Source: a virus
IMG/VR virus record: IMGVR_UViG_3300027319_000001
Strand: one strand, 5' to 3'
Length of the DNA: 64,000 bases
A model generated the notes under the pieces. That model was given only the letters and a program-made list of their open reading frames with translations. It was not told the origin of the DNA and searched no databases. Position numbers and translations under genes: made by a program. Below, one piece after another: positions 1-28,467 of this stretch (position 1 is its first letter; each line of letters begins with the position of its first letter).

Positions 1-1
1 T

Positions 2-118
2 TACGTACTCACACCCGAGAAAATTCGGTCCATGTCAATGAATGAATATGCCAAGATTCGGCCGTACATTTTTGGTAACAATGCCCAGTCCGGCCAGGGC
101 AAGGGCCTTTTCGGGTAA
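2..118 (+). CDS. 3' end of an upstream gene entering from the window edge (function unknown)
   Basis: Frame open from nt 2 to TAA 116-118 (...YAKIRPYIFGNNAQSGQGKGLFG*); ends 10 nt before the capsid start; no start codon visible in window. Confidence 0.3.
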   Translation, partial: YVLTPEKIRSMSMNEYAKIRPYIFGNNAQSGQGKGLFG

Positions 119-128
119 GGAAGGATAA

Positions 129-304
129 ATGCCTATCGGACTCCCTGCGACCAGTGCAATCACTGGTACGCCTAACCTGACCACTAACGTCACTGGCTCC
201 GTCTACGCCGCTGGTAGTAACCTCTCTCCTGCTATTCAGGAGCTGTGGAGTAAGGAGATTCTCTTCGCGGCGATGCCCGTGCTGCGTTTTGAGCAGTTTG
301 CGGT
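129..304 (+). CDS. Major capsid protein, exon 1
   Basis: RBS aggaagg + ATG 129; ...SPAIQELWSKEILFAAMPVLRFEQFAV looks like the N-terminus of HK97-fold (N4 gp56-type) capsid proteins; the ORF-track stop at 330-332 lies in the intron P2 loop. Confidence 0.75.
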
Positions 305-571
305 CAGCTTCTTCGGCCGCCTCGCATGGTGACATGCGAGTGAAAACCGCGCTGTATCGGTGAACCCCTCCAAAATATGGGGAATACCGAGGGAACCCGT
401 GTCGGGGACTCCGTAGAGACTGCACGCGCGGCAACTCCAATAGGGCCGCTGAATCGACACAATTTGGCGGAACTGGAGTTGAAGATACAGTCCGAACTTG
501 CGGGATGGTAAACCGCAAGAGCCGGGCAGAAATGACCCGGCCGCCGCCTTCTGGCGGAGGTAACAGAATTG
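305..571 (+). ncRNA. Group I-like self-splicing intron (no internal ORF)
   Basis: 267 nt; follows U304 (gcggt 300-304 pairs gccgc 316-320 with U-G at the splice site) and ends in G571; ordered helices P2 321-340 (GTGA loop), P3 347-352/426-431, P7 418-422/488-492, P8 432-438/475-481, P9 497-503/513-519; removal gives one in-frame 343-aa capsid ORF. Confidence 0.7.
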
Positions 572-1427
572 CAAGAAGACTGAGCTGGGCGTCGCCCCCG
601 GTTTGACCATTAATTTCATGCGCTACAACAACCTTCCGCCTGCCTCGCAGCTGACGGAAGGCGTGCGCATGACCACCTATGCGCTCAGCGCGAGCCAGTT
701 CAGCATTACCGTCGCTGAGCACGGTCTGGCGGTCGCGGTTTCCGAGCTTCTGCTCAACGCGTCTTTTGATGATGTAATGGCCTCCGCCTCCAGGCTACTG
801 GGGCGTAACATGGCGCAGTACCTGGATACCAGCGCGCGCGACACCCTGCTTCAGGCATCCAGCGTGCTGTATGGTTACAACAAGTTTGACACGACCGCTA
901 ACAGCAACCGTACGGTTCTTTCTCCGTATGACCTCGGTACCCACGCCACCAGCCGTGCGGGCCTTACCGGCAAGTACTACTTCACCTCGGCTCTGGTGAA
1001 GGACGCGGTTGAGACTCTTGCGAGCAAGAACATTCCGCGGCTCGGTGAGACCTACGTCTGTTTTATCCATCCGAGGCAGTCGCGTCGTCTTCGTGACGAT
1101 CCGACCTGGATCGAGACCACCAAGTATGCCTCTCCGGGCAATTTCGCCCTCGGCGAGGTGGGCAGGATCGACGACGTGGTCTTTATCGAGACTACGCAGG
1201 TCAATGAAATTTACAACGATCCTAACCTGCCGGAGGAACAGCGGGCCAAGGTGTTCCAGGCCATCATGATCGGTGACAACGCTTTTGGTCACGCAATTTC
1301 GCTCCCGGTTGAGCTTCGGGATGGGGGCGTGCTTGACCATGGGCGCGAGCACTCGATCGCTTGGTACGCGATTTGGGGTCTCGGGCTTATCACGGATAGT
1401 GCGGTTTGCATTCTTGAGACGAACTGA
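572..1427 (+). CDS. Major capsid protein, exon 2
   Basis: Same phase as exon 1; (V)KKTELGVAPGLTINFMRYNNLPPASQLTEGV...DTSARDTLL... capsid-type sequence to TGA 1425-1427; the ORF track only shows the part from TTG 603. Confidence 0.85.
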
Positions 1428-1530
1428 GCTTCCGCAGGTCAGGAAGTATGTCGATCTTGCGGAAACGCGAATTGGTGCTCAATTCTGGGACTGGCCACTA
1501 GCCTGATATTGCCGTTCACGAGACGGTACT

Positions 1531-1598
1531 GAAACGAAGGTCCGGCTCTCGGAAAACCGTGGGCCGGATCTTTGTGTTACAACAATCAGCTTCGTTTC
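1531..1598 (+). terminator. Nested stem-loop downstream of the capsid gene (possible terminator/RNA element)
   Basis: gaaacgaag 1531-1539 pairs cttcgtttc 1590-1598 and encloses tccggc 1541-1546/gccgga 1563-1568; lies in a 220-nt untranslated gap. Confidence 0.35.
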
Positions 1599-1647
1599 CA
1601 CCACACTCATATATGTACGTGTGTGAGTGAAAAGACGGAGCTGAAAA

Positions 1648-1968
1648 TTGGCTGCATCTAGGAAGTCGCCCCGGGACTACACAGGCCGTAAGGCTCAGGA
1701 GCTGGCCGAGAAGCACGCTAAGGAAATTGAGGCGATGCAGGGTCGTCTGACCACCGTCGCCGTTCCCGAGATTGAGTCTGAGGAAGTTGTCGAAGACAAC
1801 ACTCCGATTGAGGTCGGTTCAGACATGGTGAAGATGCGTGTCAATACCGACCTTGAGGACGTCACGATCGGCCAGGGAAACAACTTCACCTTCTACCGGA
1901 ATCGGATCTACACCGTTCCGAAGTGGGTTTACAACCACCTGGACGAGAAGGGGCTCGTGTGGCACTGA
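1648..1968 (+). CDS. Hypothetical head-module protein
   Basis: 106-aa ORF, TTG start 8 nt after ggag; acidic middle; no motif recognised. Confidence 0.55.
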   Translation: MAASRKSPRDYTGRKAQELAEKHAKEIEAMQGRLTTVAVPEIESEEVVEDNTPIEVGSDMVKMRVNTDLEDVTIGQGNNFTFYRNRIYTVPKWVYNHLDEKGLVWH

Positions 1969-2201
1969 CCAAGATTGAGCCTGGCGCGTCCTACAGGCTG
2001 ATTGATGACTATGGCTTTGGTCCGGGGTCTATTCCTGCCGGGGCCGATCTTAAGGTGACCGGAATTTATCCTCCCGGGACCCCTGGAATCGGCTACTGCG
2101 TTGAGGACACGGTGCTTGCTGAATACGAGCGTCCGGACGGTCCTCCGCAGGCGATTGCAGTTGCCAAGTCCGTCTTTGCGCAGATGGTGAAGGCGGTGTG
2201 A
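1959..2201 (+). CDS. Hypothetical head-module protein
   Basis: In-frame GTG 1959 overlapping previous stop by 10 nt (ORF track opens at 1923); no motif recognised. Confidence 0.5.
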   Translation: MALTKIEPGASYRLIDDYGFGPGSIPAGADLKVTGIYPPGTPGIGYCVEDTVLAEYERPDGPPQAIAVAKSVFAQMVKAV

Positions 2202-2202
2202 C

Positions 2203-2619
2203 GTGGCCGGTAATCCTACTACTGTTGGCGCGCAGGCTCTCGTTGACTTTCTGACGGGCCGTGCCGTTGCCTGGGAAGAGCGTGACGTTTACCTTGCGCT
2301 GTGCACGAGCCTCCCGCCGGACAACGTCAGCCTGTCATCTCTTCCTGAGGTGACCACCCCTGGGTATGCACGGCAGAAAGTGACCTGGGGCGCTGCGTCA
2401 CCGTCTCGGCCTAGTGTGGCGAGCAATTCAGCTGTTGTCACATTCGGGCCTATGACCGATGACATGAGCGTCCCCGTCACTCACGCCGCTCTCGTAACCG
2501 CTCAGACGGGTACAGCCGGGGACGTGCTTTTCATCTGGAGTCTGGACACCACGCAGCAAGCTGTAAACGGACAGGCGTTGCAGATCGCCATTGGAAAGCT
2601 GACGATTTCGCTCTCCTGA
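2203..2619 (+). CDS. Hypothetical virion protein
   Basis: 138-aa ORF starting 1 nt after previous stop; codon usage like neighbours; no motif I can name. Confidence 0.6.
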   Translation: MAGNPTTVGAQALVDFLTGRAVAWEERDVYLALCTSLPPDNVSLSSLPEVTTPGYARQKVTWGAASPSRPSVASNSAVVTFGPMTDDMSVPVTHAALVTAQTGTAGDVLFIWSLDTTQQAVNGQALQIAIGKLTISLS

Positions 2620-2660
2620 GAGACTGCCCGGTTCCCTTCGCTACCGCCGGGATGGAAAAA

Positions 2661-2695
2661 AGAAGACCCCGGGTACTTGATGCCCGGGGTCTTCT
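2661..2695. terminator. Bidirectional hairpin terminator
   Basis: 13-bp stem agaagaccccggg 2661-2673 / cccggggtcttct 2683-2695; A-run 2655-2660 gives a U-tract for the minus-strand gene 2707..3108. Confidence 0.75.
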
Positions 2696-2706
2696 GTGCA
2701 GTGGGT

Positions 2707-3108
2707 TCAAGCCTTGAAATATGCCCTTGCGGAACCGATGACGGCAACGACGCCGCCGACGATGAACTCTAAGATGATACCGACGGCAAGGGCAGTAGAC
2801 ACGTCCTCGTATCCAGCTCGCTTCACCAGCATGGTGATGATGAGCGTCACGAACGCCAGAGCGATGGTGACGCCGGACGTGATTGAGAAGAACGAGATGG
2901 CAGCCGCCACACCACGAGCGGGACGCTCATAGGCGGGTACACGCTCCAGGATTGGGTTCCCAGCCGAGTCATACATGAGCTCCCCAGTGTACGGGTTTGT
3001 CAGGTGCCGATACTGGGGGTTACCCATGTTGTGCAGTAACTCAAGCCCGGCAACAACCCCAAGGCTCTTAGCGACGTCTTCCGGGCCGGGGAACGGCACG
3101 TTGGACAT
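2707..3108 (-). CDS. Membrane protein encoded antisense to the structural operon (moron-like)
   Basis: 133-aa ORF; C-terminal half has two hydrophobic helices (AAAISFFSITSGVTIALAFVTLIITML; ALAVGIILEFIVGGVVAVIG); own terminator. Confidence 0.7.
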   Translation of the reverse strand: MSNVPFPGPEDVAKSLGVVAGLELLHNMGNPQYRHLTNPYTGELMYDSAGNPILERVPAYERPARGVAAAISFFSITSGVTIALAFVTLIITMLVKRAGYEDVSTALAVGIILEFIVGGVVAVIGSARAYFKA

Positions 3109-3201
3109 GGCTCCTCCTGCATCTTGGTGGTGTCTACTTCCAAGATACCCAATTCGGTAGAGCTATACCAGATTGCTGCCGGTTTTTTGGACAATTGTTA
3201 T

Positions 3202-4011
3202 ATGGCCGATATTGCTGAGATCCGCTCCCGCGTCAGGACGGCGCTGGGGGATCTCGGCGACCGATTCAGCCTCACGCTCGCTGGCGGTCAATCCAGCTAC
3301 CAGCTTGGATACCGCCGGGTCAGTGACCTAGTCGTACACGAGCTGTCCGGGTCCACGGTGTCCGAGATCCCCCCAGATGGGTATGAACTGGACGCATACG
3401 ACGGTATCATCCGTTTCCCGGAGCCGATTCCTGACAACCACAGTCTGCTGATAACCGGTCGTGAGCACGGGCTTTTCACCGATAACGAGCTGGACCGGTA
3501 CATCGACACTGCGGTCAAGAAGCACTGCTACGAGCGTGAGACGGTAGAGCGCAAGCGAAACGAGAAGGGCTTCATCGTCTACGAGCGCACCCCCATCACT
3601 CTGGAGAACCTTCCAGAGATTGAGGAAAGTGCCCTTGTCATCCTCGCCACCATAGAGGCTCTATGGGATCTGGCCACGGATGCTGCCACGGACGTAGATG
3701 TCTGGACGGCTGAGGGCACGCACCTGTCTCGTGCGCAGCGCTACAACCAGCTGATGCAGCATCTGGACGTGCTGACTCAGCGGTATCAGACGCTGTGCCA
3801 GCAGCTGAACATTGGCCTCAACCGCATTGAGGTCTACACGCTCAGGCGTGTCAGCTACACCACTGGCCGACTTGTACCGATCTTCCGTGAGCGGGAGTAC
3901 GACGAGGTCGGGCCGGGCGCATGGCCGAAGCGGCTGCTGCCGCCCATCGACAGCCCGAACGAAGACGAATCCGGAATCCCGTCCCCGATTGCTGGTGGCT
4001 GGGGGCCGTGA
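3202..4011 (+). CDS. Hypothetical head/neck protein
   Basis: ATG 3202 (MADIAEIRSRV...) inside ORF-track 3124..4011; stop overlaps next start (GTGATGG). Confidence 0.6.
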   Translation: MADIAEIRSRVRTALGDLGDRFSLTLAGGQSSYQLGYRRVSDLVVHELSGSTVSEIPPDGYELDAYDGIIRFPEPIPDNHSLLITGREHGLFTDNELDRYIDTAVKKHCYERETVERKRNEKGFIVYERTPITLENLPEIEESALVILATIEALWDLATDAATDVDVWTAEGTHLSRAQRYNQLMQHLDVLTQRYQTLCQQLNIGLNRIEVYTLRRVSYTTGRLVPIFREREYDEVGPGAWPKRLLPPIDSPNEDESGIPSPIAGGWGP

Positions 4012-4805
4012 TGGCACGACTGGACCACAAGAAGGGCCGATTCGACGTCGAATACGAATCCGACGAAATAGACGGCGCGCTTCACGGTTACCAGGGTATC
4101 TATGGCCAGTCTGTCCTGTACTACAAGTACCTGAAGGACAGTAGCCAGTTTCACGCTGTCTACGGGGAGCCGACCGGATCCGGCCGGATTTTCCAGCCGC
4201 CTGAAGCGATTCCTGTCCTTAGCGTTGTCCGTGAAGAGGGGAGCGCAGAGCAGCTGGACGGCGGTCTGTACTGGACCGACACCCTGCACCTATCTGCGTC
4301 TTTCGCGCAGCTCACTAAAGCTGGCCTGACACAGCTGGACATCGTTCACGGCCGTTATCTCAATGACCGACTCGGCTATGACGGCCGGATTTGGAAAGTA
4401 ACTCGCATCGCAGTTCTTGGACAGATCACCAAGAGAGACTTCATTGTCGGTGTTGACGCCGTCCAGATGAAGGGCGCGGATCTCACTGAGGATCCGCAAT
4501 TCGCGGACTGGGCAAATGTCAACGTCGATATTGGCGACGGCTCCACGATCGATCTCCCGGACTGGACGATCAATATCCCAGAGATCCCTACAACCCTGCC
4601 GTCCGGAGATCCGATTGTCAAGGTGTTCAAACAGAACACCCCTGCATCCACGTGGATTATTGCACACGGGCTCGGCTACAAGCCGCACGTAACACTACTC
4701 GATACCAGCGATCAGGAGATTCACACGGATGTCCACCACTTGGATGACAACACAATTTCAGTCGTCTGGTCACAGCCTACGAGCGGTACCGCACTGCTTA
4801 CGTGA
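4011..4805 (+). CDS. Hypothetical head/neck protein
   Basis: ATG 4011 in a TGATG overlap with the previous gene; 264 aa; no motif recognised. Confidence 0.65.
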   Translation: MARLDHKKGRFDVEYESDEIDGALHGYQGIYGQSVLYYKYLKDSSQFHAVYGEPTGSGRIFQPPEAIPVLSVVREEGSAEQLDGGLYWTDTLHLSASFAQLTKAGLTQLDIVHGRYLNDRLGYDGRIWKVTRIAVLGQITKRDFIVGVDAVQMKGADLTEDPQFADWANVNVDIGDGSTIDLPDWTINIPEIPTTLPSGDPIVKVFKQNTPASTWIIAHGLGYKPHVTLLDTSDQEIHTDVHHLDDNTISVVWSQPTSGTALLT

Positions 4806-4815
4806 GAGGGTTTGA

Positions 4816-5709
4816 ATGGCAGTCAAGTTCGGGAATGGGATAGATCTCGATAACAACCGCATCATTAATCTCGCTGATCCTTCGGCACCGACCGATGCGG
4901 TGAACAAGCAGTACACGGATGCGCTTGTCCGTGGACTTTCCTGGAAGCAGGCAGTTAAAGCCGCGACCACCACGAGCGGTGATCTTTCCAGCTCCTATGA
5001 GGCTGGGGACACACTGGATGGCGTTATTCTCCAGGCTGGTGACCGGATCCTAATCAAGGACCAGGCAAACGCTGCTGAGAACGGTATCTATATTGTCCAG
5101 GAATCTGGTGCTCCGACCCGTGCTCCTGATGCCGATTCTTCCGATGACCTTCGTGGCGCTACCGTCACCGTGCAGATGGGGACGGTCAATGCTGACAAGG
5201 TCTATCGCCTGATCACGGACAACGTCACTGTTGATACGACAGAGCAAATCTGGACGGAGATCGGCGGTGCCGCCCCGTCGTACTCGGCCGGTAATGGTCT
5301 TGTAGAAAACCCGGCCCGGGTTTTCAATGTTGGCGCTGGCGACGGTATTACGGTCAGCTCAAACAGTGTCTCTCTTTCGTCCACTGTTGCCGGTAACGGT
5401 CTTTCCTACTCGTCTGGAATTCTCAACGTCAACACTGGTACCGGGCTGGTTGTTGAAGCTGATGCCGTAGCGATCGATGTCAATGTCGTCACCCGGAAAA
5501 TGGCGGCGAACATCGGCAATGGTACGGCTACCACGTTCCAGGTGAACCATAATCTTGGAACCAGAGATGTGCAAGTAAAGGTCCGATACAACAGCGCGCC
5601 ATATAGCTTTATCGAAACCGACGTCGACGCAACGGACCCGAACTACGTGACTGTGACGTTCGCCAAACCTCCTGCCAGTAACGAATTCCGGGTGATTGTG
5701 TTCGGCTGA
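4816..5709 (+). CDS. Fibre-like protein
   Basis: NGIDLDNNRIINLADPSAPTDAVNKQYTD and GDRILIKDQANAAENGIYIV motifs are typical of phage fibre/tailspike N-terminal regions. Confidence 0.55.
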   Translation: MAVKFGNGIDLDNNRIINLADPSAPTDAVNKQYTDALVRGLSWKQAVKAATTTSGDLSSSYEAGDTLDGVILQAGDRILIKDQANAAENGIYIVQESGAPTRAPDADSSDDLRGATVTVQMGTVNADKVYRLITDNVTVDTTEQIWTEIGGAAPSYSAGNGLVENPARVFNVGAGDGITVSSNSVSLSSTVAGNGLSYSSGILNVNTGTGLVVEADAVAIDVNVVTRKMAANIGNGTATTFQVNHNLGTRDVQVKVRYNSAPYSFIETDVDATDPNYVTVTFAKPPASNEFRVIVFG

Positions 5710-5710
5710 C

Positions 5711-6211
5711 ATGCTTCGATTCGCAACTGTTCTTGGACTCGATCTCGTCGATACGTCCCCTAATCCGCCCTCTGGTCAGCTTGCGTTTTATGCACGAAAC
5801 GGCAGGCTGCATACGAAAGACAGTGGCGGCAGCGAGGTAGCCTATGCGACCACCGCTGAGCTGCCGCCGCGTGTCATCCCCTACTCAATAGAAGGGGAGC
5901 TGGAGCCGATTGAGGGCAGGCTCAGGCTCTATAACGACAGTGGTCAGCCGTGGAACATCGTGGCTGTACGTGCCACTGTGTCGGAGCCGCCGACAGGAAG
6001 CTCGTTGATTGTAGACGTCAACATTGATGGAGAAACCATCTTCACCGATCAGAGCAAGCGGCCGACGATAGGGGACGGGCAGAACACAGCCAAGAGCACG
6101 GAGATGTCCGTCACCACCGTGCCAGATGGCTCCTACCTGACAGTGGATATTGATCAGGTGGGGAGTACTACGCCTGGTGAAACCCTAGTCGTGCAGATCA
6201 CGGTGGTTTGA
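5711..6211 (+). CDS. Hypothetical virion protein
   Basis: ATG 5711 two nt after previous stop; 166 aa. Confidence 0.55.
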   Translation: MLRFATVLGLDLVDTSPNPPSGQLAFYARNGRLHTKDSGGSEVAYATTAELPPRVIPYSIEGELEPIEGRLRLYNDSGQPWNIVAVRATVSEPPTGSSLIVDVNIDGETIFTDQSKRPTIGDGQNTAKSTEMSVTTVPDGSYLTVDIDQVGSTTPGETLVVQITVV

Positions 6212-10918: not shown

Positions 10919-13900
10919 CCCGGTAGGCGGGAACATCCCGCCGTCCACCGCTATTCAGGTGGTTGGCGGGAAGCAGCTCAAAGACGCCGCTGAGGTCTTC
11001 AGTCGCGCAACTGAAAAGACGACACAAGCCAACAGGCGGCTCTCTGAGCAGCTGGACAAACTCACCAAAGAGCTGGACAAGCTGTCCAAGGCCCTGAACC
11101 AGCTGCGGGGGCTGTCCGGTGGCTGGGCTAACACTGCTGCCGCCCATCCCGGTACCGGGCACGGGACCACGCCAACCGGCCACGTCACTTATGGCGCGAA
11201 CGGTGGCGGCCCGCGCACTGGGGCTGGGGAGTCTCGTCAAGCTGTCGGCCGCACGCCAACCGGCCACATCACCTACGGTGCCAACGGCGGCTCCGTAGCC
11301 TTCGGTGCACAGCAGCAAGGGCGCACGATCCTTCCCACGGGCCATGTCCAGTACGGACCCAACGGTGGGAACGTTCCCGGCCTGCCGCGAGGCTGGTCCT
11401 ACACGCCATACGGGATCGTGCCGCCTAGATGGGCCCAGTTCATGTCTGGGCTTTCTGGAATCCAGCCAAGGGGCTGGGCAACTCGAAATACTCTGGCTAC
11501 CGCTGCTGGTGAGGGTGTACGTCACATCCTGCAGGGAGCTATCTCGCGTGGCGTTCAGCTGATGCCTGACCAGCTCATGCTGGACGCCATCACCGCGTAT
11601 GAACGTCAGCGTGGACTGGGCGGGCTTACTCAGCTGTCTACGCGGTACGGCATCCTCGGCGCGGACAACCCATCCGGTTGGATGAATGTTGGTGAGCTGT
11701 CGCGGATGAGCGTCCAGAGTGTTCAGGACGCCATCCAAGGTCAGCTTACGACCATAGGACTGACTGGTTCTGGACGTAACGCTCCGTCCCGGATTTCCTC
11801 AATCCAAAGAGCCGCAGACGCTCTCGGTTTCGCTAACCCTGGCGTCAGCTGGTCTCAGAGCGTCAACGTGATCGGGCAGATGCTCAAACCGTCAACACGT
11901 CTGAACTTCATGCTCATGGGTCTGCCCGATCCAACCGCTCCTGACGGTTCTTATCGAGGCAACGCGCGCTTCTTTGACGCTTTCCTGAAGCGAATTTACG
12001 GCGGCCGGGAATCAGTTCCTCCGGACGTTTTTGAGGACGACTTCCGCGAGGGCGGCGTCGGCTTGGAAAACCTGCGGATGCTCGTTGGTGAAGAGGGTGC
12101 TGAGCTGATGCTTGAACCTCTTCGCCGCTACAACGAGGCCAAGTTCCGTGGGAAGAACGTAAGCGACTTCGACACCATCATGGCCGAATCCAACCTGAGC
12201 GGTGAGCGTGGCGAGCGTGCCCGCCGTATCGCTCAGGAGAAGTACGGGTTCGAGCCGATCGCGTACCGGCAGGAGCAGGCGATTGCCGCAAAGGCCCGTG
12301 CCAGCGAACTTGCAGGTCATGACGAGTACATGGACGCCTACAAGGCTGGTGCGGCAGCCGCAGATACCTTTGCCGATGCCGTCCATGAGTTTGTGAATGC
12401 TCCGTTCATCAAGGAGGTAAAGAACTGGACTGAGGCGTTTTTCGGGCGATTTTTTGGCGGAAATAGCAGCGGTCTTCCTCCGGGTAACGGTATTGGTGGA
12501 ACACTGCGAGCGCAAGGGGCGGAAGGTCTTCCTCCGGGTAACGGTATTGGTGGTCTGCTGACCGCACAAGGTCATGAGCCAAAATCCAATGCCAATGACC
12601 CCAGGACTACCGCTTCCGCTGATACCGGTGCCGATGACAAGGAAAGTGGTCCGAAGGAAACTCGGGCGAACCGCCTGGAAAATCTCCGTGAAGAGCTTGT
12701 CGCCTACGCGAAGTCCTTTGTCGGCAAAAAGCTGCGCTATGCCGGAAGAGGTTACGAAAGAAAACGGAACGAGCCGGGATGGGCTGACTGCTCGTCTTTC
12801 GTCTCGCGTGTGTATGCGAGGTTTGGCTACACCGTCGGTCCGACCACCGTTCAGCTTTGGCGACAGGGTGTCGGCGTACCGCTGAGCAAACTCCTCCCCG
12901 GCGACGTGCTGCTGTCCGGTAGTCGTACCGAGGGCGGCGGCGCGGCGCATGCCGGTATCTACCTTGGCGACGGCAAATACATTGACGTCAGCAGTGGGCG
13001 CGGTGACCGGGCCGCGCGAATCCAGCCCATGTCGGCACATCGCTGGGAAGGCGCTCGCCGGATCATCGGCGCGAAGGGCATTAAACAAGGTGATTACGAT
13101 CCGCTGAGCAAGGATGAGCGCGCGAACGGCGGAGGTAGCGGCAGCAACGACGACGGCTCCAGCTCGACGGGAGTCGCAGCGGACAACGTTCGCTACGGCA
13201 TCATGTCCGCTGGTCTTGGTGGCGGCAGCATGGGGTTGGGGTCTCCCAACGCAGCCGCTTACTCTACGTCAGAGTACGCCGCTCTGGCGGCGATCCTTTC
13301 TGGTGGCGGTGGCGGCGGAATGCTGCTCACCGGTGATCCTTACGATGAAGCTGCTGGGGACGAGACATCAGCCAGCTCCGCCGACGCTGCTGACGGCAGC
13401 AGCACCGATAGCAGCACCGACAGTGGCACTGACTCGTCCGACAGCGCCGACGGTAGCAAGCTGCCGAAACGCGGCACGATGCATGACAGGTACGGGCCGT
13501 TCCGTCGGGACAGGTTTGCCAACCCGCGTGACGACAAGACCATTAAATGGGGCGAGAAATATGGTGCTAGCGGCAGATGGACACAGAACTTCGCCCCGAA
13601 GAACGCTCCCAAGCCAAACATTCCCGCGAACAAAGACTACGCGCGACGTGCCGCAAAGGCCAAGTACGGATGGGGTGATGCCGAATTCCGGGCTCTTGAC
13701 CTGCTCTGGCAGTCAGAATCCGGGTGGAATCAATACGCGGATAATCCGTACTCGGATGCCTACGGAATTCCGCAAGCGCTTCCTGCCTGGAAAATGGCAG
13801 AAAAGGGCAAGGACTGGCGGATCAATCCGCGCACTCAAATTGACTGGGGCCTTGAGTACATCAAAAAGCGCTATGGGACTCCATCCAAGGCGTGGGCTTT

Positions 13901-14261
13901 CAAGCGTGCCAAGAACTGGTATGAGAAAGGCGCGTGGGAGATTGAGCAGGATGAGATCGCCCAGCTGCACAAGGGTGAGATGGTCATCCCTGCGCAACAG
14001 GCACGGCGGATCCGTGATGTCCTTCTCGAAGAGAATATCGATCGACCGCGAGGGACGCAGCCGACCTTCACCTCCACGACTGGTGACGGTATCACTGTCA
14101 ATCTGAACTTCCAGCCGGGCGCGATTTCGCTTCACGCCAGTGGCAGTGCTAACGCTGCGCAGTCACTTGCGCGGCAGTTTATCCGAGAATTGGAGAAGAA
14201 GGATCTGTACGCGAAAATCATGAGAGGGGAGGGTAAGACTTTTGGCCCCGTCTCCAAGTAA
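10905..14261 (+). CDS. Tape measure protein with NlpC/P60-like and transglycosylase-like domains
   Basis: 1118 aa; RBS aaagagg + TTG 10905; GWADCSSFVSRVY...HAGIYLGDGKYIDVSS (NlpC/P60-type); WQSESGWNQYADNPYSDAYGIPQALP (transglycosylase-type); Gly/Ser/Ala linkers. Confidence 0.9.
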   Translation: MSETNPVGGNIPPSTAIQVVGGKQLKDAAEVFSRATEKTTQANRRLSEQLDKLTKELDKLSKALNQLRGLSGGWANTAAAHPGTGHGTTPTGHVTYGANGGGPRTGAGESRQAVGRTPTGHITYGANGGSVAFGAQQQGRTILPTGHVQYGPNGGNVPGLPRGWSYTPYGIVPPRWAQFMSGLSGIQPRGWATRNTLATAAGEGVRHILQGAISRGVQLMPDQLMLDAITAYERQRGLGGLTQLSTRYGILGADNPSGWMNVGELSRMSVQSVQDAIQGQLTTIGLTGSGRNAPSRISSIQRAADALGFANPGVSWSQSVNVIGQMLKPSTRLNFMLMGLPDPTAPDGSYRGNARFFDAFLKRIYGGRESVPPDVFEDDFREGGVGLENLRMLVGEEGAELMLEPLRRYNEAKFRGKNVSDFDTIMAESNLSGERGERARRIAQEKYGFEPIAYRQEQAIAAKARASELAGHDEYMDAYKAGAAAADTFADAVHEFVNAPFIKEVKNWTEAFFGRFFGGNSSGLPPGNGIGGTLRAQGAEGLPPGNGIGGLLTAQGHEPKSNANDPRTTASADTGADDKESGPKETRANRLENLREELVAYAKSFVGKKLRYAGRGYERKRNEPGWADCSSFVSRVYARFGYTVGPTTVQLWRQGVGVPLSKLLPGDVLLSGSRTEGGGAAHAGIYLGDGKYIDVSSGRGDRAARIQPMSAHRWEGARRIIGAKGIKQGDYDPLSKDERANGGGSGSNDDGSSSTGVAADNVRYGIMSAGLGGGSMGLGSPNAAAYSTSEYAALAAILSGGGGGGMLLTGDPYDEAAGDETSASSADAADGSSTDSSTDSGTDSSDSADGSKLPKRGTMHDRYGPFRRDRFANPRDDKTIKWGEKYGASGRWTQNFAPKNAPKPNIPANKDYARRAAKAKYGWGDAEFRALDLLWQSESGWNQYADNPYSDAYGIPQALPAWKMAEKGKDWRINPRTQIDWGLEYIKKRYGTPSKAWAFKRAKNWYEKGAWEIEQDEIAQLHKGEMVIPAQQARRIRDVLLEENIDRPRGTQPTFTSTTGDGITVNLNFQPGAISLHASGSANAAQSLARQFIRELEKKDLYAKIMRGEGKTFGPVSK
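11172..11375 (+). repeat. Three in-frame coding repeats in the tape measure gene
   Basis: ccaaccggccac at 11172 and 11256, cccacgggccat at 11334 (periods 84 and 78 nt); peptide PTGH[VI]xYG[AP]NGG three times. Confidence 0.6.
12471..12578 (+). repeat. Tandem 54-nt coding repeat in the tape measure gene
   Basis: ggtcttcctccgggtaacggtattggtgg identical at 12471-12499 and 12525-12553 (GLPPGNGIGG twice). Confidence 0.85.
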
Positions 14262-27390: not shown

Positions 27391-28467
27391 CTGGACACTC
27401 GGGCCGTCCCATCCGCACCAGATTGGATCGATGTGACCAAGTCAATCGTGTTCGCTGTCGCCGGGGGTGGCGACATCAAGCCCGAGACGGTCGAGTCGCT
27501 GCTTGACCACTTCCTTGAGGTAGACACGGACAACCCTCGTGATGTTGCCGCTGTCTACCTCCCTGCCGATGTCAGGCTGACCACTAGCGCCGTCCGTTAC
27601 GCAGCCCGGTGGATGGATGACGTTGGCCTGCCCTACATCGCTGTCAGAGGTGATCGTCCCGGACGTTTTGGCCGGGAGATCGCTGATGGGGCTCAGGAGG
27701 TCATCACCGGTGAGTCGGTCGTAGACGCACTGCGCTCCCACAAGGACGACGACGTCGACATCTACCTCCTGCTTGCGTGGGGCGATGACCCTGAGCAGGC
27801 AGCAGACGTGGAGACAGAGGATCTCCTCACCAACGCGCACGAGTCCGGCATCACTGTGCTGGATCTCAACGCCGGGCTTGATGAGATCGTTGTGGACGAT
27901 GGATCCGAGGACCAGGATGACGAGCAGCCTTCGGAATTCTCGTCCGACGTAGACGAAGAACCTGGGCCGTCCGACGACAAGAGCGAAGCTCCTGACCTCC
28001 CTGAGCTGAACGAGGAGACCCAGGAGCTGGAGCCCACCGACGAGGCACAGGCCACGATCCGGCCGTCGGAGCCGACTGAAAAGGACGAGGCAGACGTCCC
28101 GGACCTGGCCACCACGCTGTCCTTTGTGTACCTGGCCATGTCCAGTCTGGACCGTGCGATTGCCGCACTGCGGATGGAACATCCGCGCTTCAGCCCGATT
28201 ACCAGGGTGGTCCGGCACCACCTCCACCAGATGCTCAAGGACGACCTGCCGTCCACTGTGGACGAGCTGGACAAGCTGATTGAGGAGACTCGCCCGAAGC
28301 TGCGTGGAAAGCCTCGCGACACCTCATCCGATGAGGTCAATGTCCTGATTGACCGGGACAAAAAGACCATTCGCCTCGCTGGCCGGGGCCGCCCTCGTAA
28401 GGGTGAGGTTCAGGAGCGCATGACACGCGCAGAATTCGAAAAGCTTGCCACCGACTGGGGGAGCTGA
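27388..28467 (+). CDS. Highly acidic early protein with C-terminal AT-hook-like motif
   Basis: First ORF after the structural module; DDGSEDQDDEQPSEFSSDVDEEPGPSDDKSEAPDLPELNEETQELEPTDE; C-terminal RLAGRGRPRKG. Confidence 0.6.
   Translation: MLDTRAVPSAPDWIDVTKSIVFAVAGGGDIKPETVESLLDHFLEVDTDNPRDVAAVYLPADVRLTTSAVRYAARWMDDVGLPYIAVRGDRPGRFGREIADGAQEVITGESVVDALRSHKDDDVDIYLLLAWGDDPEQAADVETEDLLTNAHESGITVLDLNAGLDEIVVDDGSEDQDDEQPSEFSSDVDEEPGPSDDKSEAPDLPELNEETQELEPTDEAQATIRPSEPTEKDEADVPDLATTLSFVYLAMSSLDRAIAALRMEHPRFSPITRVVRHHLHQMLKDDLPSTVDELDKLIEETRPKLRGKPRDTSSDEVNVLIDRDKKTIRLAGRGRPRKGEVQERMTRAEFEKLATDWGS

Follow-up and report, generated by a model that had tools for sequence, protein, structure and literature searches.

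The major capsid protein (MCP) gene near the start of a 64,000-nucleotide stretch of viral DNA (IMG/VR record IMGVR_UViG_3300027319_000001, the whole of which we call the window) is interrupted by 267 nt that hold no open reading frame (ORF) and have the architecture of a group I intron. We conclude, with a probability of roughly 93%, that positions 305-571 are a functional, splicing-competent, ORF-less group I intron with exactly these boundaries, located in the late MCP transcript. It is a further member of the RNA family of the introns in the Cluster J mycobacteriophages BAKA and LittleE, and the phage whose capsid gene it occupies is BRock-like and known from metagenomes only.

Translation in frame 0 from ATG129, which has the Shine-Dalgarno-like motif AAGGAAGGA 5 nt upstream, gives MPIGLPAT...LRFEQFAV and then meets a stop at 333 and four further stops. 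Past TAA561-563 the MCP frame resumes as KKTELGVAPGLTINF..., also read as KKTELGVAPGLTINFMRYNN..., and stays open until the stop codon at 1425-1427. With U304 joined directly to C572, the 267 nt drop out and a 1032-nt ORF of 343 aa results. The spliced protein matches the PHROG major head protein family phrog_1357 (5.9e-62, residues 27-342) and also Pfam Phage_capsid_4. By tblastn, its residues 4-343 align in one piece, with ~70% identity, to the annotated MCPs of five Streptomyces phages (LuckySocke, Alone3, BRock, pSt2308 and GiJojo), and the MCP of Bacillus phage BCD7 is colinear at 45% identity. Protein alignment with the MCPs of BRock and LuckySocke, which are intronless and 73% identical to the spliced product, is ungapped at the junction, and the 15 residues that span it, LRFEQFAVKKTELGV, are identical in both. 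Exon ligation restores a continuous gene with a product colinear with intronless MCPs, and the gene order portal, scaffold, MCP is as in BRock.

The length of the insert, a multiple of three, would also suit an intein that is excised from the protein, or a segment that ribosomes bypass during translation as in T4 gene 60. However, the insert cannot be an intein because it has five in-frame stop codons, and intein or endonuclease domains are absent. The T4 gene 60 bypass gap is 50 nt, so the insert is about five times that length, and it has a conserved, covarying group I fold. Together, the in-frame stops and the RNA covariation effectively refute an intein or bypass.

The Rfam covariance model RF00028 matches positions 295-519 on the plus strand (model positions 1-253, 42.0 bits) with E-values of 2e-9 locally and 2.6e-7 over the whole window, and its alignment puts U304 on the splice-site U of the model. 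This is the sole Rfam match in the window at E ≤ 0.1; at that cutoff there is no match to a group II intron, for which the size and boundaries are also unfitting. Neither Rfam in E-value mode nor an nhmmer profile of the intron family finds a second copy in the window. The unconstrained minimum free energy fold of 295-584 has -124.3 kcal/mol (z = -4.93; 0 of 200 shuffles as stable) and recovers paired regions P1, P2, P3-P6, P8, P9, P9.1 and P9.2, the P7 pseudoknot not being drawable by the method. The centroid fold pairs 305-311 with 575-582. Taken with the covariation described next, the RF00028 alignment gives a catalytic core complete in P3-P6, P7-P8, the P3/P7 pseudoknot and the joining segment J8/7. 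No plus-strand ORF in the intron exceeds 44 aa, and the longer minus-strand ORFs extend into the exons.

Covariation across the intron family supports the structure. Searching IMG/VR for exact matches to the pattern of the conserved P4-P5 block gave 99 stretches. From these we aligned 56 distinct full-length members with MAFFT, without structure fitting, and then counted the hand-derived structure (70 pairs) on the alignment; controls were the same partners slid by 1-3 columns and 500 shuffles. Standard pairs fill 88.5% of the cells, versus 34-42% when slid, and both sides change in 47 of the 70 pairs (28-32 when slid). The covariation score is 0.406, against 0.059-0.098 for slid and 0.126 for shuffled partners, and none of the 500 shuffles reached it.

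Compensatory changes occur in P2, P3, P6, P7, P8, P9, P9.1 and P9.2 (coordinates in Table 1). All eight pairs of P2 have changes on both sides, with 89.9% of cells paired, and at least 50 of the 56 members have a GNRA sequence in L2. P3 is paired in 95.5% of cells (compensatory changes in five of six pairs) and P6 in 96.7%, where pair 393-409 is C-G in 30 members, G-C in 20 and A-U in four. P7 is paired in 98.8% of cells; here G422-C488 alternates with A-U (16 versus 38 members) and G416-C493 with C-G (53 versus 3). P8 and P8a vary in length within the family and are paired in 83% and 80% of cells, with compensatory changes in five of eight and four of four pairs, respectively; J8/7 is nearly invariant. 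The 3' domain is similarly constrained: P9 is paired in 99.5% of cells (compensatory changes in five of seven pairs) and P9.1 in 99.4% (six of six), and 45 of the 56 members share the same L9.1 sequence. The length-variable P9.2 reaches 77% of cells in the MAFFT alignment, with compensatory changes in five of five pairs, and the GUAACA tail at 560-565 is invariant in all 56. The window intron holds every invariant column of this alignment. We define the BAKA-type family here from the alignment, by full-length homology that includes P9.1, P9.2 and a GUAACA-N4-6-G tail, all of which the window intron has.

Two observations stand beside this structure. Position 423, just 3' of the 5' strand of P7, covaries with J8/7 base 485 in a non-Watson-Crick manner (C/A in 41 members, A/U in 10, U/A in 5). 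No RNA partners are assigned to the GUAACA tail or to the conserved L9 and L9.1 loops.

Table 1. Coordinates in the window of the interrupted capsid gene and of the structural elements of its intron
Feature	Position	Strand	Description
MCP exon 1	129-304	+	58 codons and the first 2 nt of Val59; ends at U304, the 5' splice-site U
Group I intron	305-571	+	267 nt, no ORF, 58% G+C, 5 in-frame stops
MCP exon 2	572-1427	+	from the last base of the Val59 codon through the stop codon (1425-1427)
P1	300-305/315-320	+	U304-G316 wobble at the 5' splice site; 315-320 is the internal guide sequence; seen in sequence
P10	308-313/573-578	+	6 bp; cuucuu in the P1 loop with AAGAAG in exon 2; seen in sequence
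P2 hairpin	321-328/333-340	+	8 bp, GUGA (GNRA) loop
P3	347-352/426-431	+	encloses P4, P5, P6, P6a and the 5' strand of P7
P4	357-360/387-390	+	invariant in family
P5	365-368/379-382	+	invariant in family
P6	391-393/409-412	+	U410 bulged
P6a	396-398/405-407	+	
P7 pseudoknot	418-422/488-492, plus G416-C493	+	A417 bulged between G416-C493 and G418-C492
P8	432-439/474-481	+	distal extension P8a 446-449/467-470
J8/7 (aagaua)	482-487	+	single-stranded core segment joining P8 to the P7 3' strand; fits the AAGAUAUAGUC consensus of RF00028
P9.0 pair	A495-U570	+	family covariation
P9 hairpin	497-503/513-519	+	7 bp, conserved 9-nt loop GAUGGUAAA
P9.1 hairpin	521-541	+	6 bp, conserved loop CAGAAAUGA
P9.2 hairpin	544-557	+	5 bp
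3' tail	560-571	+	GUAACA 560-565, then gaauu, terminal G571

The splice sites themselves are supported in two further ways. Counted by alignment column, P1 is paired in 42% of cells, a test unfit for this helix because MAFFT cannot register exons of different genes. P1 was instead assessed per sequence, by comparing the guide sequence with the end of the 5' exon across insertion sites. The two partners change together, as in GGCCGC-GCGGU, GGGGAC-UCCU, GGUCGC-CGAU, GGGUGC-CACU and GGACGC-CGUU, and the window has the U-G wobble with an internal guide sequence that is characteristic of group I introns. At the 3' end, the base equivalent to window position 495 (after 'CCG', in J7/9) covaries with the base before the terminal G: A-U in 30 members, G-C in 22, G-U in two and A-C in one (Fisher p = 4.6e-12). 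Because this P9.0 pair covaries with the base just before it, U570, the terminal G is placed at 571, where the 6-bp P10 also positions it.

An earlier note on this DNA, written from its letters and predicted ORFs, had described a capsid gene split at U304|C305...G571|C572, and the covariance model, homology to BAKA, covariation and colinearity with intronless MCPs uphold that description. Its expectation that joining 304 to 572 recreates a Val codon and a 343-aa, 1032-nt ORF was correct, as was its reading of the intron as ORF-less, and in the alignment it had proposed the conceptual product is colinear with intronless homologues and ungapped at the junction. P1, P2, P3, P7, P8 (432-438/475-481), P9 and the hairpins at 521-541 and 544-557 all lie where it had placed them, and all are perfect Watson-Crick or G-U helices. 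Each carries compensatory changes in the 56 members except P1, which the per-sequence guide analysis supports. To its list we add P4, P5, P6/P6a, G416-C493 with the bulged A417, P9.0 and P10. The note had also proposed a covariance-model scan. As given above, this yielded the RF00028 match at 295-519, with 42 bits and E = 2.6e-7, but the match fell below the 50-bit gathering threshold and ended at G519.

That shortfall is among several points that weigh against a functional intron with the ends given here. The match surfaced with E-value thresholds, and Rfam run on the whole window at its default gathering cut-off reports nothing. The RF00028 alignment stops at G519 (...CCGCAAG) and not at G571. 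P10 is seen by eye in BAKA and in the introns of loci L006 and L007, which occupy the same site as the window intron, but there is no obvious P10 in a third same-site intron (L047); the helix is only partly conserved, and we count it as support alone. Splicing of the window copy is deduced from structure and homology, RNA-level splicing being known from the BAKA and LittleE homologues, and protein-free self-splicing is assumed. As to the first of these points, the gathering threshold is not decisive for this family, because sibling introns score 32.6-56.7 bits and the BAKA intron, validated by reverse transcription PCR (RT-PCR), is not listed by RF00028 at E ≤ 1e-3 in a 45-kb multi-locus scan. 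The position in the earlier note that the lack of a covariance-model hit would refute the intron is too strict on the same grounds, the match being sub-threshold and the validated intron unlisted.

The second point raises the question of whether the 3' splice site is G519, the end of the Rfam model, in which case 520-571 would be part of exon 2. The alignment, which ends ...CCGCAAG at 519, is the argument for this site; RF00028 is a model without P9.1 or P9.2 that stops at G519. Against it, 520 and 572 differ modulo 3, which would start exon 2 out of phase, and exon 2 would contain TAA561-563 in the MCP frame. Alignment to the BRock and LuckySocke MCPs reveals no residues matching 520-571 in these homologous capsid proteins, P9.1 and P9.2 covary as RNA helices, and the P9.0 covariation sets the terminal G directly after U570. 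Further, the junction in BAKA cDNA lies at the equivalent G past the GUAACA tail. We rejected G519 on frame, in-frame stop, homologues and P9.0, and give it almost no credence: the 3' splice site is G571.

For an intron bounded by U304 and G571, the standard group I pathway would run as follows. The RNA would fold into the P3-P9 core, and the guide sequence at 315-320 would pair with the end of exon 1, forming P1 with its U304-G316 wobble. A free guanosine bound at the P7 site, at G418-C492 beside the bulged A417, would then attack the bond after U304. The terminal G571, placed by P9.0 (A495-U570) and P10 (308-313/573-578), would next occupy the same site, and the 3' OH of U304 would attack the bond after G571. 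The exons would be ligated as GU|C, restoring Val59 and the 343-aa capsid protein. By analogy with G264-C311 of Tetrahymena, G418-C492 is the putative guanosine-binding pair. The pair is invariant in 56 of 56 members and adjoins the bulged A417, apparently the textbook geometry of a guanosine-binding site. The window copy is presumably catalytic.

The intron could be real and still depend on a host or phage protein, such as a maturase or RNA chaperone, and would then splice poorly or not at all in vitro. Splicing of the BAKA homologue was reported by in vivo RT-PCR only, and the L9 and L9.1 loops and the GUAACA tail could be protein contacts. On the other hand, the core is complete and thermodynamically strong, as the free energy and z-score of the fold attest. 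The intron also has a GNRA L2 loop and extended peripheral helices at P9, elements that usually have a stabilising role in small, self-splicing group I introns of bacteria. There is no maturase-like gene in or beside the intron. We regard protein dependence as unlikely.

Is the insert instead a dead intron remnant, or some other insertion, that leaves a broken capsid gene, a defective genome or two separate polypeptides? In favour of this, gene callers do give two ORFs. In a 62-kb Logan contig (L201, SRR6048028) that represents the same phage with the same intron and an identical exon-2 protein, the capsid gene stands in the public gene calls as two ORFs, one of 67 aa (2512-2715) and one of 269 aa (3001-3810), the latter with only a weak capsid Pfam match. 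Yet both exons are intact and in phase, and every family-invariant core base is present. IMG/VR contig L098, a further assembly of this phage, is 99.1% identical to the window over 9.3 kb, with 82 substitutions, none of them in positions 1-974, and its intron is identical. Independent translation of exon 2 could begin at TTG603 or ATG618; by eye, neither has a Shine-Dalgarno-like motif upstream, and either would cost the conserved N-terminal third of the capsid protein. The ATG618 version of the exon-2 ORF is on record and the TTG603 version is not. A broken gene is in our judgement very improbable, and we retain the reading of a functional intron.

The MCP has more than 575 relatives in IMG/VR, and site occupancy was read in the best 80. 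The intron is sporadic, because all of these 80 are uninterrupted at the site of the window intron (70 with exactly FEQFAVKK), including the closest full-length relative, at 83% identity; this is as expected of a mobile element. Diverged family introns lie at exactly the same site in L006, L007 and L047. Identity of the window intron to that of L006 is 83%, and to other members it is 54-77%. The four alleles that contain an intron at this site all have GCGGU|C, whereas empty alleles vary at both wobble positions. Twin family introns lie 42 nt apart in the homologous capsid genes of L006 (reverse strand, 4034-4604) and L047 (756-1355), separated by the mini-exon FQAMPVLKFEQFAV. One of the twin sites is KEIL|FQAM and the other is that of the window, QFAV|KKTE, and in L006 the 3' halves of the twins are identical. 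A 69%-identical capsid homologue in a 494-kb contig of Streptomyces sp. NPDC020379 (L193, ~4518-6121) has a family intron near residue 47 and a second break near 324-329; this suggests an actinobacterial host range, the sequence being possibly a prophage or a co-assembled phage. The BRock-like lineage probably infects actinobacteria.

Among the family members sampled, capsid genes are the prevalent hosts. We placed host genes by junction peptides and by PHROG scans of spliced host ORFs, and found members in capsid genes of four sequence-unrelated PHROG families (1357, 10, 2263 and 752). Other host genes are a portal gene, a major tail gene and, in Cluster J, the minor tail gene. Among 73 non-redundant near-full-length members from the fetched IMG/VR loci (L006-L104), 60 (~80%) lie in or beside MCP genes, a count made with 900-nt flanks and open to sampling bias, as viral-contig detection favours capsid-bearing contigs. 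The description of an ORF-less intron in a late structural gene as unusual, given in the earlier note, was thus overstated: the family is known from Cluster J tail and capsid genes, and most sampled members sit at MCP genes. In the phrog_1357-type gene we count by eye at least eight insertion positions, at about residues 41, 46, 54, 59, 77, 106, 145-147, 226-248 and 323, and several insertion sites fall in the first ~80 codons of the capsid gene.

Some capsid genes are interrupted repeatedly. The phrog_1357-type genes of L059 (reverse strand, 3087-5494) and L031 (reverse strand, 636-3207) have five intervening sequences and that of L052 (4316-6490) has four, giving 5-6 exons; each intervening sequence is ~265-305 nt long. 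For several of them the match to the family profile is confined to its 3' half, and a second, related intron type may be present in the three genes. Outside this set, an Actinomycetes metagenome-assembled genome contig (L187, JAKAED010000254.1) has four family-profile matches in 3 kb (~489-2541), three of them head to tail in ~800 nt (1763-2541) with very short exons, in a gene unlike the window's MCP. The exact P4-P5 motif also occurs in Patescibacteria (candidate phyla radiation, CPR) contigs L186, L189-L192 and L194-L200. Profile matches there are partial and probably belong to a separate lineage of group I introns with the core in common.

There is no endonuclease ORF inside the 267-nt intron and no endonuclease gene adjoining the MCP gene. 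In L098, two paralogous Cys-rich proteins with repeated CxxC modules (253 and 336 aa; 11897-12658 and 12925-13935, both on the minus strand) are encoded 2.5-4.5 kb upstream, ahead of the portal gene. Their similarity to HNH and endonuclease VII PHROG profiles is limited to the zinc-finger parts, and the profile search detects no catalytic domain in them; they may be degenerate or free-standing relatives of homing endonucleases. The guide sequence is near-constant in the family and its GGU|C target motif recurs across many genes, which would, speculatively, be compatible with integration directed by the guide sequence. A tentative and rather doubtful extension is that the window intron is one copy of a largely undescribed ORF-less lineage that preferentially colonises MCP genes and spreads without an endonuclease of its own. 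Two speculative routes can be imagined: guide-directed reverse splicing that targets short GGU|C-like sites in the most abundant late mRNAs, or free-standing endonucleases acting in trans. Should this proposal hold, actinophage capsid-gene introns would be a tractable natural system for studying the movement of endonuclease-less introns.

With this intron, a ribozyme family whose experimental record is confined to Cluster J mycobacteriophages extends to the BRock-like lineage. They also have a practical consequence. Capsid genes of this phage group will be mis-called systematically, because ORF pipelines cut the protein in two and Rfam at its default threshold reports nothing; the truncation by ORF-only annotation that the earlier note had foreseen is visible in the 67-aa and 269-aa calls of the Logan assembly. 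This affects MCP-based phylogeny and viral-contig classification. A single intron of this kind is ordinary for specialists, and the capsid-gene tropism of the family and its multiply interrupted capsid genes are the more interesting lead. The concentration in capsid genes, the twin introns and the presence of up to five intervening sequences bear on how endonuclease-less introns choose and gain access to their targets.

In the 220-nt gap past the capsid stop lies a long imperfect G+C-rich hairpin (ggtccggc...gccggatc, ~1539-1580), followed by TTTGTGTT, that could be an intrinsic terminator. A simple terminator scan 3' of the MCP gene did not flag this hairpin (~1539-1570) because its loop is long.

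Among isolated phages, the nearest counterparts are the Cluster J introns. The window phage is not in INPHARED (megablast of window positions 1-3000 gives no match), and sensitive blastn of the intron matches only Cluster J mycobacteriophages, inside the minor tail gene; within INPHARED the family is limited to 30 Cluster J records. The BAKA record annotates this gene as 'contains possible group 1 intron', and the 265-nt intron at 28,186-28,450 (JF937090), which has no endonuclease gene, was found to be spliced out by RT-PCR, a U closing exon 1 and a G closing the intron (Pope et al. 2013, PMC3706429). The same study documents the intron family in tail and capsid genes of Cluster J mycobacteriophages (PMC3706429). 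The BAKA/Optimus minor-tail-gene intron and the window intron belong to one RNA family, are of similar size (265 and 267 nt) and are both ORF-less. Full-length homology extends from P1 to P9.2, one for one and in the same order. They have in common the blocks GUAUCGGUGAACCCC...GGGGAAUACCGAGG, CCGUA(G/C)AGACU, GAAG(A/U)UA(C/U)AGUC and GGCAGAAAUGACC and a GUAACA-N4-5-G tail, as well as the U at the exon end, the G at the intron end and a P10 adjoining the guide sequence. The setting is also alike, a late virion gene of a ~110-kb siphovirus infecting (for the window phage, probably) an actinobacterium. The host gene differs (minor tail protein versus MCP), as does the phage lineage, and overall similarity is low: blastn finds only 56 nt at 84%, and most helices differ by compensatory changes. 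Splicing is demonstrated for BAKA, whereas the window copy is known from sequence.

LittleE offers the closer parallel in host gene. Its MCP-gene intron (JF937101) is ~820 nt long with a homing-endonuclease ORF, and its splicing was established both by RT-PCR and by sequencing the protein from its N-terminus through the junction (PMC3706429). Over 86% of the length of the BAKA intron, the LittleE ribozyme has ~92% identity to it. Unlike the window intron, it carries an endonuclease ORF, annotated HNH in the record, and lies in an unrelated MCP gene; the N-terminal sequence and introns of the same type suggest that its insertion is at a GG|Y site.

Within RF00028, the closest by eye appear to be small bacterial introns of the IC3 type that lack an ORF (Azoarcus tRNA-Ile, Anabaena tRNA-Leu). 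Shared features are a P3-P8 core with the P3/P7 pseudoknot, a GNRA L2, the lack of P5abc and of P7.1/P7.2, a size of 200-270 nt, a GUAGAGACU-type 5' strand of P7 and a AAGAUAUAGUC-type J8/7 and 3' strand of P7. The window intron differs in its extra P9.1 and P9.2, its invariant GUAACA tail and its location in a phage protein gene, not a tRNA. Other self-splicing group I introns of phages, such as those of T4 td, nrdB and nrdD, the SPO1 DNA polymerase gene and Twort orf142 (three introns), also interrupt conserved stretches of essential phage genes, many are ORF-less, and several may share one gene. Gut Jug jumbo phages have ~18 small introns per genome, with small ORF-less group I introns splitting essential genes (PMC12880540). 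These introns occur in other hosts and are unrelated in sequence beyond the universal core, whereas the family of the window intron is concentrated in the capsid genes of actinophage-like contigs.

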